Source: Cystobasidiomycetes sp. EMM_F5
Lineage: Eukaryota
Reading direction: 5' to 3'
DNA length: 64,000 nucleotides
Assembly (NCBI GenBank): GCA_051047955.1
Contig: JBPGPT010000005.1
Location: 558,001-622,000, forward strand
Position numbers and translations under genes: made by a program. The notes under the pieces are model-generated. The model had not been told where the DNA came from and made no database searches. It saw nothing but the letters and a program-made list of their open reading frames with translations. Positions 14,309 through 52,298 of this stretch are shown here, piece by piece; the first letter of the stretch is position 1, and every line of letters begins with the position of its first letter.

Positions 14309-17212
14309 CTAGCAGCAACCCCAGATGCGTGTATCATCCGGCCGTTGCTCATCCTTCTTGTCTGAAATCATGACCGAGTCTTTCGTACGCAGTATCCGGT
14401 CTTGCGCAATCTGGACTTTACGTTCCACCAATCTCGACGCGATTGACAGAAATAAGTCTTCGATACCCTCATCTTCTTTGGCGGAGACTTCAGAAATCGA
14501 CATGTCCTTCCATACCGGCTCTGGCGGCTGTGTTGGCTGCGGGACCTTGCTTCTTGATTGCGTTCTCGACAGACCGAATGAAGATCCAAAGTAACGGCTG
14601 TTGTTCACGTTGTGGCTGTCACTCGTCTCGCCCATCGCACTTCCCGCACCGGACGACGTAGATGAGACACCACCGTCCGCGTGATTGGCAATAGCGGCGT
14701 TATTGAGCCATTCCGAGATTTTAATCCGGGCGTCTTCGAGGTGTACTCGGCGGTGTTCGGGAGCCAGATCCGCCTTACAACCAACGATATGTACGATCAG
14801 GTCGGACGACATGTTTCGCTGTAATTCATCCAGCCACACTTTGATATCTTCGAGCGAGTCTGGCGATGTGAGATCATAGACAAGTATCGCAGCATGAGCA
14901 CCGCGGTAGTACATTGGTGCCTGAAGCAAACGCGGCCGAAAGTCAGTTCCGATACTGTATACCGGTGGACACGAATAACTACTCACCATACTTCTAAAAC
15001 GCTCTTGACCAGCTGTATCCCAAATCTGTAAGCGGACCTTGACACCGTCCATAATCAGTTTCTTGACGAGGAACGACGCTCCAATGGTAGTCGGCAGCGA
15101 GCTAGAGAACTGTCCAGTCATGTATCGATGTACGAGCGACTACGGCGTGAACAAAGGATCAGCTTGGTACACGACATGCAGTGAAGAACCATGATTGCAA
15201 AAGTTACGTACAGTTTTTCCAACTCCCTGCCTACCGAGTAGAACAATCTTTGCTTCAAGCTGATTGCTTTGCGTAGCGTCGCGGTTGGCCATGTCAAATC
15301 TTGTCTGTGGTACGGATGAATGGCTCGCAAAATCGCCTGGAGCGTTGCCGCGAGGATGATAGCCGTGCGATGATGACTGCTGTGACGGCAGACCCGAGAC
15401 CGAATGTGAATGACCATGTCCATGTGCTGACGGAGGATGTAACGAGTCATGCCGTGATCTTGTCGGAGATCTTTGCAGATGTCCTCCTGCACTCCTCTGC
15501 CCATTGCCAGGAAGCGTAGACGGTAGTGCGGAGGGCGAGGAGCTAGCAACTCGCATCATATTGTGCGAGCTATTGGAAGATGTGGATTGTGGAATATTGC
15601 TGCTTGTACGAGGTACGGGTGCATCGAGCCAGCGATGCCCAGACTGGTGAGAGGATTTGTCACGCGGCGACACAGTCGTTTCGTTGATAGATACCGTAGG
15701 ATACGGATCAAAGTCACTCAGGTGTTGAGTATTGCGCCTGTACTCTGAAGGAGGTGATCCGAGGAGACCAGACGATGAGGCGGTGTTGGTATTCAGTAGT
15801 GTCTGAGATCCGAGTGAGGCTTTCCTGAAGCGGGGATCTTGAGCAGTACTAGAGGTAGGAGAGAGGTGGTGGTGAGCAGACGGGGACGTGACGAGTATCT
15901 GTTGCTGTCGATAAGCCTGTACGTCTACACTATGCCTACGATTTGCACCGCTGATATTGCGCGAGTAATCGCCTAGGTGATCGTTGTAGCGTGCGGACGT
16001 CGATGTGCTAGGTGGAGATAGGTTGGCTTGTCGGTCCCACTCCGGAAATGGTTGGTACGGTGCAGAGCCGTGTCCTGATGTGGTGGCAGAAGTGGATGCA
16101 GACATCGAGGCAGGACTCGACAGCAGCACCGCCGAATCCGGTGGCCGCTGCTGCTGCGACGTAGGGTAATTGGCATACTGATGCTGAAAGTTCTGAAGGT
16201 GCAACTGTGCAGCCGACGAGGCAGAACTTGACGTGCCACTGCTGCCCGCTGTCGGATATCTCGCGGACGTGGGAGTCGTGGCGGCGGCATCCAAGTCGTC
16301 GGCTGCTGCGAATTGTAAGATGTGGTCGCATTGGTCGTCGTCTGCGCCGACAAAAGGGTGACGCGAGGAGGAGGATGTGGAAGTAGCGCTCGTGGGAGTC
16401 ATGATCCCCGTGGAAGATATCGACCGCGGCATGCTAGGTCGCGCAGAATTTGGTGCGGGTTCAGCGAGGCCCACGTATTCCGCGAGCGATGTCAGCGCAG
16501 CTATGGACTGGCGCCTTCGACGACTAGACGTGGCAGGCTGAGAGTGAGACGGTTCATGAGAAGTCAGGGAAAGGTGCTGCCCCGTTGTCGTTGTGAAAGA
16601 ATGAAACCTTTGTTGCTGCTGAACGCCGGCAGCGGCTATGGTGTTTGTCGTGTTTGACCGTACGAGACCTGCCCGCGGGTTCCTCCTGGACGACGCTGAA
16701 GGGAGTCCGGAGAGATGTCCGTGTCCGTATCCGCGCTGCTGCTGCGTGTAGTCGATATCGTCCTGGGCGTGGTACAGGCCAAGGGCATGGTTACGGTTGC
16801 TGAGGACGGGCGATGTGATGGCTGACTGCTGCTTGATGCCGCGCGGAGGGAGTGGACTTGTACTCCGCGACGACGAAACTGACGGCACTGATATTGACTT
16901 GGCTCCAGCTGATGACATGGTCGACCGCCGTGGTCGCGGGGGTCGACGCGCTGCTGCGATATCCTTGGCATCGGCGACCGTAGCAGCGGACGAGGAAGAG
17001 GTGGACACGCTCGTCAAGCCACTGCTCGCACTGCTGCCACTGATATCGGTACTGACACTGCTGCAGCTATCGGTCGACGGCGTGGGCGACATGCAGCTCG
17101 ATGATGGGGCGGTCTCGGCACCAGTCTTGGACGACGAGCCAGCGTCGTTTCCTACCGCACCCATAGTCGCAGCAAACTCCATACTGGTCGGAGATGATAC
17201 TATCGTCGCCAT
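14309..17212 (-). CDS. Rab5/Rab21-group small GTPase with very long disordered N-terminal extension
   Basis: KIVLLGRQGVGKT|S, TTIGASF, WDTAGQERFRSM|APMYYRGA, VGCKAD, EVSAK, C-terminal CC. G1 is in the same exon as ~670 aa of Ser/His/Gln-rich sequence. Confidence 0.85.
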
Positions 17213-46228: not shown

Positions 46229-48883
46229 TTAAGCCTTGCGAAGGGCCTCGCGCCATGATGCTATTTCAGTTTGGGTCCGAGGATGGCTAGTCGATGCAAC
46301 CTGTATGGAGTGTGAGCAGGCAATAGCGGCAGAGCAAGCGTACATCGTACTGTCAGAGCTGCAATAATCTGCGAGTATTGTGATCTCAGGTAGCCCGAGC
46401 TCTTGCCAGGGTCGCCTTGTCGCGCGGCTTGTGATTTAAGCAAGTTTTGCAGCTCAGACCGCATACGCAAAAGTCTGCCAAAAGATTTCAGCTACCGAAA
46501 CACTTATTAATGTTCATATCACTGACGTATTGTAGACCATGTCATCGTCACGATCTGTGCTAAGCTCGGTGATAGCCAGGAACAGGGCAGCATACTTGCG
46601 TGATACCTACGTTTTGTGTCAGCTTCTGTGCATATTGGGACGACATACCGACTGACGGAAGCGATGACGCTGTCTTTCATGACAGGACTCCGCCCAACCC
46701 CAAACATGCCGGCCATCCCACTTGGGCTTTCGCCAAGCTTCTTAATACTGTCAATCTGCGTTCCCATCTCCCTCTGGAACGCAGGCCATAATTGCAGACG
46801 GTTCCCCATCAAATACGTTTCCATGCTTGCTGTTGGGCAGGCGCCCTGTCCATCTTCACCTATTAGATTCGTATATAAACTGTCGTTTAAACGTATCATG
46901 CTGAGGAGGGCTACTGGAGGGAGGCTTTGCTGTGAAAGCAAAGTCGTGATGAAGACCTATAGGGCAGCGTCAGAGGAGCTCTCAATGTTGCCTCTGCATT
47001 ACGACATCACCTTTGCATATTCCATGCAGGGCTCGTATATTTGTTTCCATACATTGTCTCCTAGCTGTTTCCTCAGCTTCTCCTCCTTGCGGGCTTTGTC
47101 ACTTGGCAGACCGCTATTCGAGTCGCCTGAGATCACGCTAGCACTGTCGTCATCGTGGATACTAGACATCCGGCTATAGGATGCGTCTGGACTAAGCGCG
47201 CCGCTACGGGTTTGGCGACTCCAGAACGCCTTCGACTCATCTGTAGTCATGTGCGGTGCGCCAATGCTATCTGGACGACCGAAGAAGGATGTGACAAAGT
47301 CGAATTCCGAGCTAGCGTTGTCAGCCAGCACGAGAGATATCGAACGAAATAGATTCTCTGGACTGCTTTGCTGCCATAGATGCACAGACCTCAGGGAGGG
47401 AAAACAGCAGAACTTAAGGTGCTCAACCTACGAGCGCGGTATCATCTGCCATATGAGCGAGGATAACAATGTTGGAGGCCGATTCCGGCACACGCAAGGC
47501 GGTGTCCGTATCGAGAGATGGTCTGGATAGTTGGAGTCCGGCAACCGACCCATTCCGATGTTGAAGCTGAGCTGTGGACTTGGATATTCAGCCGCTGATC
47601 ACAATCGAGAGCTTGTTCCGTATACCTATTGAGGCTGCTTCCCCTACGCGAGCCGCGGAGATATCTCCCACCGGAGATCGCGCTTGGACTCGCTCCAGCG
47701 CCCGCACGTATCGCCGGAAGCCTGTCTCGTAGTACCATTGTGCGGTAGAAATGTAGTACTTTTGCACCTCGTGGGCAATTCTTGCGGAATGTCGTTGCAA
47801 GAAAGCGTAGAATGACCGGTATTTCCCAAGGATGATGGTCTGCAGGACAGCCAGGTTTGGAGTCAACGATGTCCTATATGGTGTGAACAAGCCGATAAAG
47901 AAGCCCCGAAGTGCTGATGTTACCTATACGTAGACAGCGACACAAGCTCAGACAGCTTCTTCTGGTAGGAAGCCACAAACACTTACCCGGAGGCGGAGTT
48001 TTTCCGCCACCTCGTCAAGGTCTCTCCGCAGACTTATTCGCGGCCCGCTTCGAACAGCCAGCAGTACTCTTTCCAGTTCGGCTACTGGCTCTATCCAAGC
48101 CTCGGACGGCTCGGTATTGAGCAGGGTGGCGATAAGTTTTGGAGAGATTACGATGTTGCTCAGCAACGATGTTAGATTAACTCTTACAGCCTGTCGCAGC
48201 AAGTTCGTCGGACAATGCATTTTTTCATTCCATATGTAATTGTCAATCACCTTGCGGTTGTCGAGGCGTGCTTCGATAACCTTGCTGCGCCCCTGTAAAT
48301 CAGATATATGCCCAGAAACAGCGGACAAGTCTGATTGAAAGCTCGTGATGAACGATTCGAGTGATGTCAAAAGCGTCAAGCTCGTCTGTGAGCGTATTCA
48401 GTCACAGCACGCGCGTGTCTCCACCTGTCGACATACTTGAACTTGTTCATGGAGGTCGGTGTACCCTTTCGACTTTGCGTCATCTGGAAACCTCAAATGG
48501 TCAGATATGATAATGCACAAGCCTCCCGTTGATATCCTGGATATGCACATTCGTTGTCCTCCGCCAGTTCCTGCTGGCTACGATGACTAGAAGCAGCGCT
48601 ACGCGCTTCTCGAATGTCGCCTAACTGGGCGGCCTGTTCCGCAAGATTCGAGATATCTACAAAGGCGACGGAGCACGCCGGTCGCGTCACCCGTCAGCGC
48701 GCGCGAGGTTAGCCGTGTTGTGTATCGACCTTGCCTTTGGCACCTAAAGCCTGTCAACATGTCAATACATGCGGTCAGTGCCGCGGATGATGACGGCAGC
48801 GATGGATCGCAACGCTGGACACGTACTTCTTTGTCGTCGGCAACGGTCAAAGGACCAAGGATCCTGTCCCAGTCGGCATTCAT
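46229..48883 (-). CDS. VPS52: GARP complex subunit Vps52 (multi-exon)
   Basis: LLTSLESFITSFQSDLSAVSGHISDLQGRS, YYETGFRRYVRALE, ENLFRSISLVLADNASSEFDFVTSFF, LLSMIRLND, LWPAFQREM. Confidence 0.9.
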
Positions 48884-49233
48884 GCTGTTGCAAGTCGGCA
48901 CTCTACAAAGGAACTGACACCTATAACTAATGATTGACATCTTTCGAATTTCGAGAAAGCTACTCGATAACGCCCTGACGATCGTCGCTTGTCACTTACC
49001 TTAGATTACGGTGGAAGATAATATACGCAGGCCACCTGGTCACAGTGATTGGTAAACAATCAGCCAGGGTCTGACTATGACAATTTTATGTGGGAAGGGA
49101 GAGGAGGTGGGAAATCAGACAGGCTGAGAAACTCGCAATGAATGCTGTTTGCTCAGATATCCTGGTCATCATCGTATGGGCGACGAGTTCCGTCAGAAGA
49201 AGGTACAAAGCAAGATTGCAGATGGGTAGAAGG

Positions 49234-50520
49234 AGAGCCATCGAATGGGAGTAATCCGAATTGAGTTGCGCCATGCCATCCCGTCGACTGTCGACAGTGC
49301 CGAGTCCAAACTGTAGTTCAAGGGGGTGAAGTCGTTTAGTTGATCCCGCGGTTGAAGGTGATCCAAAATCTGTCGAAACAGTCGGGTGCTCCAAGCACGT
49401 CCGTCAGCTGGCCATCGCGGGCCGCACCACAGTCTGTACACCGACATCCCGCAAGCGCTAGCTCTGCTGGCTACAGCGTCTAAACAGCTCCGTACATCTT
49501 GTAGTAATCGTAGTTAAACAGGGGCCAAACAAATCAGAATTGTAGGCGTGTTAAATCGGCCAAAGAGGAGACTTCCAGAACTTTTCATAAAGTGCGAACA
49601 AAAGCGAAAGTGCAAGAGTAGGTGCCAGACTCCGTTGCGAATACCATAAGCTTCAAAACGCTGCTCCATGCGGGGCATGAAACAGAGCCTCTCTTCTCGC
49701 GGTCGTAAGGGGGTTCCGGCAAGTCGGTCCGCGTCTGTAGCGGTCTACTTTTCTAGTCAAGCGTCATTTTTGCACGCCATTCTGGTCGCTCGGGTTTGGA
49801 CGATTGCAGGCTTCAATCAGGAAATTGTATCCTCTGCTCAAGTTCGAAAGGGGCGAAAGAAGTTGTGGTACCATCGGCCTGGACCTGTCGACGGGGAATG
49901 GCACGGCGTACCGCGTATTGCACTGAATCCAGAAAGCTGACCGAAGTGGTGTGAAACCATCTCGAGGAACCAGCTTTGAGGCAACAAATCTCCTTGACGC
50001 TTTCCCAAACTCCGCTCCCAACTGCTCATCTGCCTCGCGTCCCGCATCGCGTCCCAGTAGGTACTCTCTTCCCGATCTGCTTTGCCCAAAAGGGCGACAC
50101 GGAAGGGGCGTCTTGGAGTGACCGTAGCACAATCCCTCAGCGCACAACTGCTTTCTGGGGACCTTTACATTCAATCTTGCCAGCTGTAGGACTTGCAATG
50201 AATGCTTTTGGCTGCCTCACAGGGCTCAAGCTCCTTCGATACATAACAGCGTGCGTTTTGCTGGTAGGACGCGATGGAGCGACCGGGAAACCCAGTCTTG
50301 TCGAGCTTGATGGAGTCAGAAGAGAGCGGAGCCCGGACGAACACCCAATGGGCATCCGACCTGGATTGCTGGTAGCGCCCGCAGAAGCAGATTGACTTCT
50401 TGCCCTTCAAGGGCGTGAGCTCTGGAGAATACACTCGGACTTTCCCGCATCCGAAGAGTATAGCATTGTCGACGATGCTGTGTGTGAGGATGCTTGCAGC
50501 GGTCTCCGTCCGATGGCTCT
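49234..50520 (-). ncRNA. RPR1: Nuclear RNase P RNA, giant (~1,287 nt)
   Basis: P1: AGAGCCAUCG (50520-50511) pairs with CGAUGGCUCU (49243-49234). P3 hairpin with internal loop (50493-50447). CR-I GGGAAAGUCCGAG (50446-50434) pairs with CR-V AACUCAAUUCGGAUUA (49267-49252) to form P4. CR-IV AGUGCAAU (49924-49917) is followed by the P2 3' strand GCGGU, which pairs with ACCGC (50503-50499). P8/P9 hairpins and CR-II/III-like AGCAA and UGGGAA appear in the correct order. Confidence 0.92.
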
Positions 50521-50817
50521 GTCTGTGCACCTCGGCCTGAACTCGCAACGGATGTTCAGAGTCGGATGGCCTACAGCTACCTGCGGTCGTGCTTGACCGA
50601 CAGGCTAGCGACCATCACAGGATGGTGCTACGCCTCGCCCAGGCGTGTGTAAGTGTCGTGCGACGTCACTCGGTTGAGGGGAAACAAAGGCAAACCGAAC
50701 GAACGCAGCTGGGCAAAGATTTGGAGTCACAGGTGGCAAACGGCTTTTGAAGCGACTAGTTACGATTCGACAAGGGACAGAGGCTATAATATCAAGAGCA
50801 ACGAAGTGTTGGATCCG

Positions 50818-51685
50818 TTACACGGTCTGAAGATTCTCTACCTCAATCAAGTACTTTGTCATGTCTAGCCAATCCGAGTTGCCGTTGACTTGGATGCTGC
50901 ATGCGACTAGTGCGGACGTTGTATACTGAAACAAGCTTCGTCAGACATGTTCACAACACTTATCTTGCGCAGAACGTACCGGTTGACCAGCAGGATTGGG
51001 TTCGCAATTTGCATCACCGCTTGTTGCGCCCTTGATGCTATCGGATAGACAGTCGAAGTTAGTGTCCGCAAGGCTCAGGCGTCGAGCTTCGTCACGTACG
51101 AGCCGCACTCGAGGGCCCAATCATTGCAAAAATTTCCCATAGTGTTGCTCGTGCCAATGAGGACCGCGCGTCTAGGGTCGTTGCGTTTGCGCATCGCTGC
51201 GCTCTTTAAGTCGCGTTTGGATCGCGTGAGTCCGGCTGGAGGATCTCTTATCCAGGAATTTTGAATGATCACGACCTCCGTTTGGTCGTGGAGTTTACCA
51301 TCTGCCGTTTCTGCAGTGCAAGAAACCAGAAGAGTTTGCTGTGTAACAATTGCATTAGTATCGTTTCTGTGTGAGTCTTTCCGGGTGTTCTGGGTCACAC
51401 TTACGTCCTTGCCTGTGTAGACACTGCCATCGCGGCAGCTGGCGTACCCGGTAACAGCGCCTGGAAGCCTGCAATGACAAACTCAGTATGACAAAGAAGA
51501 GCTGGGAGAAAGGGTACTTACGAGCTGCTACACTCGTTATACCAATTCTTGCAGGCTTCGCCTTCGCTGAGTCCCTCGGGAAGCAGCACGACAAGACGGT
51601 CGTCATTACGTTTCAAAGGGGTGTGCCCCAGGACGCCGGCGACCAGCGCTGCGGCAAGGAGAGAAGAGGATGCGACTCGGACCAT
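50818..51685 (-). CDS. Small secreted Cys-rich protein with two homologous domains separated by KR sites (5 exons)
   Basis: Signal peptide MVRVASSSLLAAALVAGVLG. Domain 1 KR-NDDR...CKNWYNEC...C...C; domain 2 KR-NDPR...CNDWALEC...C...C. Canonical GTAAGT/GTACGT introns. Confidence 0.75.
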
Positions 51686-52298
51686 GATGAATGAGCAGTC
51701 GTTTGGAAAGAGTGTGCAAAGAAGCTCGAGTAGCTAGTCTGAGTGGTTTACGGGGCGTGGAGATGCGGAGATGGAGGAGAAAGAAAGAGGGTGAGATGAG
51801 CAGGAGTGTGGGTTTTATACCTTCTTGCATGCTTCCGGGAACATCTACAGCAGTGTTGTCTCGCCAAGAGGCGGTGTCCATTGGCATTGCTGTTTATGGT
51901 AGGATATCGGAAAGTATCTCCTTCCGGCTCAATGCTGAAGGATGCGCACCAGATGCAGTGCAGGTAAGGCTGGGCATCCATTGAGGCGTGCTGTGTGGTC
52001 AGTGCTCCCAAGCTGTGGCGCGAATCCGACGAGCTGATCAAGTCGACGGAATAAGGCAACGAAGATGGGAACGTCGCATTGGCAGCAGTCGACAAGCGGA
52101 AGTGTCCAAACAAGACGGCATCGACAGCTTCCAAGCTACTGAGCGAGCAATGCGTATAGATGTCGTTGATGATCGCATTCAAGACCACGACATGATCAGT
52201 ATATACTGAACATGGAAACGACAATGTGAGACTTGATTTATACGGCTTGATACATTTGACATGGACAATACTATTCACACGAATGGTATGTAGTGAAA

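Follow-up and report, generated by a model that had tools for sequence, protein, structure and literature searches.

RNase P RNA is the ribozyme by which new tRNAs are trimmed. Typical nuclear RNase P RNAs measure ~300-370 nt and carry a hairpin of ~20 nt at the eP19 position. In rRNA, a conserved catalytic RNA, expansion segments evolve fast and vary in length; they extend the tips of peripheral helices from a conserved basal helix that anchors them, and many of them have shown functions. A 2010 review (PMC3001073) names the 1149-nt RPR1 of Candida glabrata as the largest RPR described. Plasmodium P RNAs are characterized in second-hand accounts as 'highly extended' in P3, eP8', P12 and eP19. 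The giant C. glabrata RNA is reportedly expressed and present in the active enzyme, and its three insertions are said to lie, all of them, in the specificity domain. In the solved yeast and human P/MRP structures (PMC10966300, PMC13184271), P3-P2-P19 form one coaxial stack beside P1-P4. The gene considered here lies on the minus strand of a 64-kb window (the whole stretch of DNA that was analysed) and shares with the Rfam family RF00009, the S. cerevisiae RPR1 and the human H1 RNA the helices P1-P4, the conserved regions CR-I, CR-II, CR-IV and CR-V, and a helix between the P2 3' strand and CR-V. Unlike a typical nuclear RNase P RNA, it has an eP19 of 640 nt and an additional 349 nt at P12, giving a total of 1287 nt. 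The favored reading, to which a probability of roughly 0.68 is assigned, is that the eP19 arm represents a lineage-specific, fast-evolving expansion segment, transcribed with the RNA, near-neutral in its interior, and tolerated at the end of the P3-P2-P19 stack.

The window holds fungal nuclear DNA; its genes, interrupted by introns, code among others for thiolase, Ras, a protein kinase, Prp31, and Vps52. One exon of the thiolase gene matches, at 100% identity, an NCBI protein under the label Cystobasidiomycetes sp.; since the next named relatives are ~70% identical, the DNA is assigned to a sparsely sampled lineage of basidiomycete yeasts (Pucciniomycotina). An uninterrupted ORF of 690 aa (15140-17212, minus strand) is also found in the window; it belongs to no Pfam family, and itself is the sole match at E <= 1e-10 among 7997 candidates scored. 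A search for tRNA genes in 48000-52000 gave none.

A default Rfam scan of the whole 64-kb window in gathering mode returned 0 RNA matches, RNase P RNA included. The Rfam identification rests on a match obtained in E-value mode only, in a scan of 48000-51500: RF00009 scores 33.8 bits (E 1.4e-07; gathering score 28 bits) at 50514-50278 on the minus strand, ahead of its clan-mates at this locus (only the best member of a clan is displayed). The 5' half of the match aligns well over P1, P3, CR-I, P8, P9, and CR-II; the 3' half is forced or misaligned and does not include CR-V. Direct reading places the true 3' half ~1 kb beyond the point where this sensitive scan ends the gene. If 49200-49300 is aligned by itself in a 5'-truncated mode, model positions 231-301 of RF00009 are matched with 10.1 bits (E 0.15 in this 101-nt search), and CR-V is placed there at high posterior. 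As standard Rfam annotation misses or truncates genes of this kind, the RNase P RNA of this fungal group is probably annotated wrongly, either as missing or as short.

Judged by its sequence, the locus is a nuclear RNase P RNA gene of a basidiomycete yeast with a predicted mature RNA of 1287 nt (50520-49234, minus strand), and its predicted core is intact and closed, with P1, P2, P3, P4, and CR-I, CR-II, CR-IV, and CR-V present (Table 1). The set that marks an RNase P core occurs complete: CR-I, CR-IV, and CR-V are all there, and P4 is formed between CR-I and CR-V, UUCGGAU pairing with GUCCGAG with two G.U pairs (direct reading). The CR-II and CR-III motifs of the specificity domain separate P RNA from MRP RNA; here, ACCAGCAAU aligns to the CR-II consensus ACCAGAAAU. 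P1 is a perfect helix of 10 bp (50520-50511 with 49243-49234), found by inverted-repeat search and by reading, and CR-IV at 49924-49917 fits the motif of this region, AGNNNNAU. The mid-gene block at 50013-49985 (GGAGUUUGGGAAAGCGUCAAGGAGAUUUG) may correspond to CR-III, i.e. the 3' side of P10-11. The full-length MFE fold of the 1287-nt RNA retains P1, P3, P8, and P9 along with the arm stem.

Table 1. Features of the RNase P RNA locus, in window coordinates.
Feature	Position	Strand	Evidence
Predicted mature nuclear RNase P RNA, 1287 nt	49234..50520	-	RF00009 match on 5' half; 10-bp P1; CR-IV, P2 3' strand, CR-V, and P1 3' strand read directly and kept in L002; transcript contig ends at 49238-49241
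Transcribed 5' leader, ~145 nt	50521..50665	-	X1 record 4 (50305-50665) and X2 record 9 (50504-50659) extend past P1
P1 5' strand AGAGCCAUCG	50511..50520	-	Pairs with 49243-49234
P2 5' strand ACCGC	50499..50503	-	Pairs with GCGGU 49914-49910; L002 has ACCGCU/AGCGGU
P3 GCAUCC ... GGAUGC, distal GCAU/AUGC	50447..50493	-	Rfam covariance alignment; last pair C-G -> G.U in L002
CR-I GGGAAAGUCCGAG, including P4 5' strand GUCCGAG	50434..50446	-	Rfam covariance alignment; identical in L002
CR-II ACCAGCAAU	50365..50373	-	Aligned to consensus ACCAGAAAU; identical in L002
Second expansion, 349 nt, between CR-II and the CR-III block (P12 position)	50014..50362	-	z -2.74; folds better than shuffles
Conserved block GGAGUUUGGGAAAGCGUCAAGGAGAUUUG	49985..50013	-	Longest identical mid-gene stretch in the window/L002 alignment
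CR-IV AGUGCAAU	49917..49924	-	Matches Rfam consensus AGUgCAAU; identical in L002
P2 3' strand GCGGU	49910..49914	-	Direct reading; kept in L002 (AGCGGU)
Enlarged eP19 closing helix, 5' strand	49887..49908	-	Direct reading, MFE folds, duplex energy
eP19 expansion interior, 598 nt	49289..49886	-	Transcribed: 49805-49908 and beyond, and 49241-49712, in contigs
Enlarged eP19 closing helix, 3' strand	49269..49288	-	Direct reading, MFE folds, duplex energy
CR-V ACUCAAUUCGGAUUA, including P4 3' strand UUCGGAU (49260-49254)	49252..49266	-	Truncated RF00009 alignment, high posterior
P1 3' strand CGAUGGCUCU	49234..49243	-	Inverted-repeat search and direct reading

A first-pass annotation of this DNA had placed an expansion of about 600 nt on helix P19, closed by a stem after P2 and before CR-V. 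Direct reading and both MFE folds (insert alone and whole 1287-nt RNA) bear this stem out: CGCCGUGCCAUUCCCCGUCGAC at 49908-49887 pairs with GUCGACGGGAUGGCAUGGCG at 49288-49269 on the minus strand, enclosing 598 nt (49886-49289) of an insert that measures 640 nt as a whole. The stem consists of 11 bp (one of them G.U), a 2-nt bulge, and 9 bp, 20 bp in total, and is missed by the inverted-repeat search since its longest exact run is below the 7-nt seed. The first and last 30 nt of the insert form a duplex of -42.5 kcal/mol (RNAduplex), and 0/1308 equally spaced 30-mer pairs drawn from the window as background (mean -11.7 +/- 4.2 kcal/mol) are as low; the closing helix is far beyond chance. By direct reading, the local order is the P2 3' strand GCGGU, one A, the arm stem, and CR-V. 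The RF00009 consensus carries a 7-bp eP19 hairpin immediately 5' of CR-V. Because the stem begins 1 nt past P2 and directly precedes CR-V, at the very place of this consensus hairpin, it is assigned to eP19, the helix between the P2 3' strand and CR-V. The two smaller hairpins pointed out inside the arm, CUGU-UUCG-ACAG and GUGCU-UGG-AGCAC, recur in the MFE structures of the insert alone and of the whole RNA.

Metagenome contigs were scanned with a pattern of CR-I, a gap, and CR-II, which returned two loci. L001 matches by chance and lies in bacterial DNA of coding appearance; L002 is a genuine relative with the same core blocks in a gene of ~1818 nt, and its Rfam score for RF00009 amounts to 24.8 bits (gathering score 28). 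CR-I, CR-II, CR-IV, and CR-V are identical in both genes, and their last 41 nt are 97.6% identical. At the same site as the window arm, L002 carries an insert of 1131 nt. The 7-bp base of its arm reads CGCCGUG/CACGGCG versus CGCCGUG/CAUGGCG in the window, the G.U pair of the window being G-C in L002, and in the next 12 bp, the distal helix of L002 (GAACUCCGCUGA/UCAGCGGGGUUC), the sequence is unlike that of the window and the pairing is preserved. The L002 stem duplex reaches -39.9 kcal/mol, with 0/1298 background pairs as low. Compensatory changes between the two genes also occur in P3 (C-G to G.U) and in P9 (A-U to G-C), which argues that both are under selection as RNA. The eP19 site, the non-random helix, the compensated helix of the L002 insert, and the presence of the insert in transcripts (see below) together uphold the annotated expansion on P19. 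Pattern scans of the genome_contigs set for further relatives gave only bacterial matches or zero, and the scan of viral_contigs gave zero. Five genome-contig matches (L003-L007) are not RNase P according to Rfam, and a scan that returned L008, on a Bacillus scaffold, is expected to give ~1 chance match for its 20 specified bases. The regions upstream of the window gene and of L002 have no convincing block in common. L002 is regarded as a distant relative, since even the P12 expansions of the two genes barely align (7/100 shuffles reach the score).

An inverted repeat of ~20 bp that bounds ~600 nt of DNA resembling unconstrained sequence would also be the appearance of a MITE-like transposon whose terminal inverted repeats are formed by the 20-bp stem; its landing would possibly have made the gene a pseudogene. 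Several observations make this origin highly improbable: the flanks (GGUA on one side, CAAC on the other) show no target-site duplication of the kind a MITE leaves, and no second copy of the insert exists within the 64-kb window. In L002, a longer insert of different sequence occupies the identical site, on the same 7-bp base that corresponds to the consensus hairpin position, and the one mismatch between the arms of the repeat is a G.U pair that is G-C in L002. Moreover, the core has been preserved perfectly, compensatory changes included, and the locus shows expression. Even so, the interior may have grown through insertions into the loop.

The interior itself was assessed by folding and by comparison. 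Once 25 nt have been trimmed from either end of the 640-nt insert, the window interior folds with z = -0.2 (12/40 shuffles are as stable), 10 control windows having a mean of +0.21 (sd 0.98), and the L002 interior gives z = +0.89 (17/20 shuffles as stable), MFE z-scores being blind to protein-binding or locally structured elements. The whole window insert reaches z = -2.9, a value that is attributed to the stem since it vanishes with the closing strands. Between the interiors of the window and L002, no significant similarity is detected (best local score 23 versus 20.7 +/- 2.1; 15/100 shuffles reach 23). Rfam finds no family in the arm interior alone, and the arm contains no tandem repeats. 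Long ORFs of 236 aa (L002) and 150 aa (window gene) that run over the conserved RNA blocks, as well as a plus-strand ORF of 90 aa, were dismissed as chance, with a best Pfam E of 0.087. Taken together, the interior looks unconstrained and appears to evolve fast in sequence and length, without a detectable function of its own.

The annotation had suggested that the insert could be a new RNP scaffold, a nested ncRNA, or an excised intervening sequence. A nested ncRNA finds no support, the Rfam search with the insert alone being empty; neither does a structured scaffold, given the z-scores of the two interiors and their failure to align. A functional arm in the broader sense would recruit extra proteins as a scaffold particular to this lineage, or would harbor a nested small RNA, comparable to the flexible arms of yeast telomerase RNA. 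It would account for the fact that two divergent lineages have not lost the arm from this site but have let it grow (640 nt in one, 1131 nt in the other), that it is transcribed, and that its closing helix is strongly maintained. It is nonetheless considered unlikely, because the interiors share no sequence similarity, neither of them folds better than shuffles, no Rfam family is found within, and the lengths are almost two-fold apart. According to the annotation, an insert that is unalignable and unstructured in close relatives would be neutral bloat. The comparison with L002 leans toward bloat on both counts; the sole relative is distant, however, and the non-alignable interiors are therefore weak evidence of neutrality.

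Transcription was followed by comparing public runs with 48700-51100, namely the contig runs X1 and X2 (one study) and X4 (another study) and the raw-read run X19 of poly(A) RNA. X19 placed 0 reads on this interval, too few to test transcription. In 3/3 contig runs from 2 studies, all contig pieces fall inside 49238-50665, and none lies in the flanks 48700-49237 or 50666-51100. DNA at such coverage would not stop at the gene ends, and the contig runs are therefore taken to be RNA, their label 'RNA?' being a guess. The 5' junction of the arm is spanned by X1 record 3 (49805-50329) and the 3' junction by X4 record 10 (49241-49413), each with 0-1 differing letters; the contigs reach 103 and 144 nt into the arm from its two junctions, and other pieces cover 49323-49712. 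Joints or loose ends that would mark a spliced form were found in none of the three contig runs at their depth of 2-6, a depth at which contigs are blind to rare forms, ends, and strand. The arm is transcribed, no removal of it is seen, and we infer that it is retained in the mature, enzyme-bound RNA.

Some contigs continue beyond P1 into a leader (Table 1), and none of the three runs shows coverage beyond 50665. The S. cerevisiae RPR1 likewise has a transcribed 5' leader, and that of the window recalls this promoter-bearing yeast leader. Since coverage of the leader is about as deep as that of the gene body, the reads may come largely from precursors. X1 and X2 also contain short contigs at 49238-49275 (4/38 letters differ) and 50468-50519 (6/52), of which only the conserved ends match before unlike sequence follows, and one of them departs immediately past the 7-nt base on the 3' strand of eP19. 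By appearance, these are RNase P RNAs from other, related fungi of the same samples.

If precursors dominate the contigs, the arm could be an intervening sequence, removed or cleaved once it has been transcribed, leaving a short mature RNA or two pieces held together by the eP19 helix, P1, and P4. The stretch 49713-49804 (92 nt), uncovered in all three runs, could be enlisted for such a removal; the coverage fractions of the individual runs predict ~120 uncovered nt by chance, so the gap counts neither for nor against excision. The contigs run across both junctions without a joint or loose end. The splice-site pattern GT[AG]NGT is absent from the 1287-nt RNA, Rfam detects no group I or group II intron at the gene or the arm, and the closing helix has a single 2-nt bulge instead of a bulge-helix-bulge. 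An excised intervening sequence is thus left without support and is rated as decidedly unlikely, and a mature form that lacks the arm or is cut within it may exist.

A further point in favor of excision comes from T-runs. In RNA-sense positions, L002 has T5 at 65-69 (in P3), T5 at 773-777, T7 at 789-795, and T6 at 1148-1153, the last three inside the arm, and another T5 run follows P1. Runs of the T5-T7 kind should terminate RNA polymerase III, and those inside the insert should stop it before the 3' half. The window gene has T4 runs at most, none of T5 or longer, and no T-run after its 3' end. The internal runs of L002 and the missing 3' run of the window, together with the long transcribed leader, leave room for non-canonical synthesis. 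The RNase P RNA would then be a long RNA of 1.3-1.8 kb, possibly made by RNA polymerase II, with the arm either serving as a docking platform for lineage-specific partners or being cleaved to give a two-piece ribozyme held by the long eP19 helix; this proposal, too, is considered improbable.

The second expansion, at P12, behaves in part differently from the arm. Its counterpart in L002 measures 386 nt and folds with z -2.10, and a comparison of the two reveals one short conserved island. Within the P12 expansion of the window, the CR-II motif UACCAGCAA is copied as a 23-nt direct repeat that is 74% identical (50258-50280 and 50366-50388). This repeat, which is not conserved in L002, hints at growth of the P12 expansion by local duplication. 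In L002, three short collinear direct repeats connect the P12 expansion and the eP19 insert (520-533/1356-1369, 725-739/1432-1446, and 811-827/1591-1607); the best local score of 30 compares with 21.9 +/- 3.2 for shuffles, 1/100 of which reaches 30. It is a weak hint that part of the L002 arm may have been copied from P12 material, and the same comparison in the window gene gives no signal (35/100 shuffles reach the score).

The expansion-segment reading runs as follows. Two peripheral helices would have ballooned, P12 by 349 nt and eP19 by 640 nt, to yield an RNA of ~1.29 kb. The ancestral 7-bp eP19 hairpin would survive as the base of the long closing helix, and its former loop would have become ~600 nt here and ~1100 nt in L002. 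The arm would be part of the same transcript as the core and, on the data at hand, stay in it. It is probably tolerated because P19 forms the outer end of the P3-P2-P19 stack, where lengthening points outward, so that the arm would project away from the catalytic pseudoknot (CR-I/IV/V) and the tRNA-binding surface. The closing helix alone would be under visible selection, holding the P2/P4 junction in register, and the near-neutral interior would drift freely, like that of an rRNA expansion segment.

In the literature searched, no RNase P RNA longer than the 1149 nt of C. glabrata is described, nor is a giant basidiomycete P RNA or an eP19 insert on the kilobase scale. The RNAs of the window (1287 nt) and of L002 (~1818 nt) exceed that length. 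An insertion in the catalytic domain illustrates how tolerant the universal ribozyme core is at the end of the P3-P2-P19 stack, and the T-runs of L002 turn the choice of polymerase into a testable question. If the arm is truly dispensable, tags could be engineered into RNase P at this naturally suited position.

Among the known systems, rRNA expansion segments have the same habit as the arm, in a different RNA; a function, which many of them possess, is not among the properties demonstrated for the arm. The P RNAs of Plasmodium offer a precedent for the tolerance of eP19 and P12 toward lengthening. They differ in that these are extended helices by description, not a multi-branched insert of 0.6-1.1 kb, and as the lineage is unrelated, the lengthening of eP19 there is of independent origin. 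The closest likeness in scale is the RPR1 of C. glabrata, again a fungal P RNA whose core is intact and which lineage-specific insertions have lengthened several-fold. The window gene fits this description with its intact core, the 349-nt P12 and 640-nt eP19 insertions, and contigs confined to the gene. The resemblance is a likeness and not common descent, as lineage and main site differ: the largest insertion lies here in the catalytic domain at eP19, the RNAs are longer (1287 nt, and ~1818 nt in L002), and the host is a basidiomycete instead of a budding yeast.
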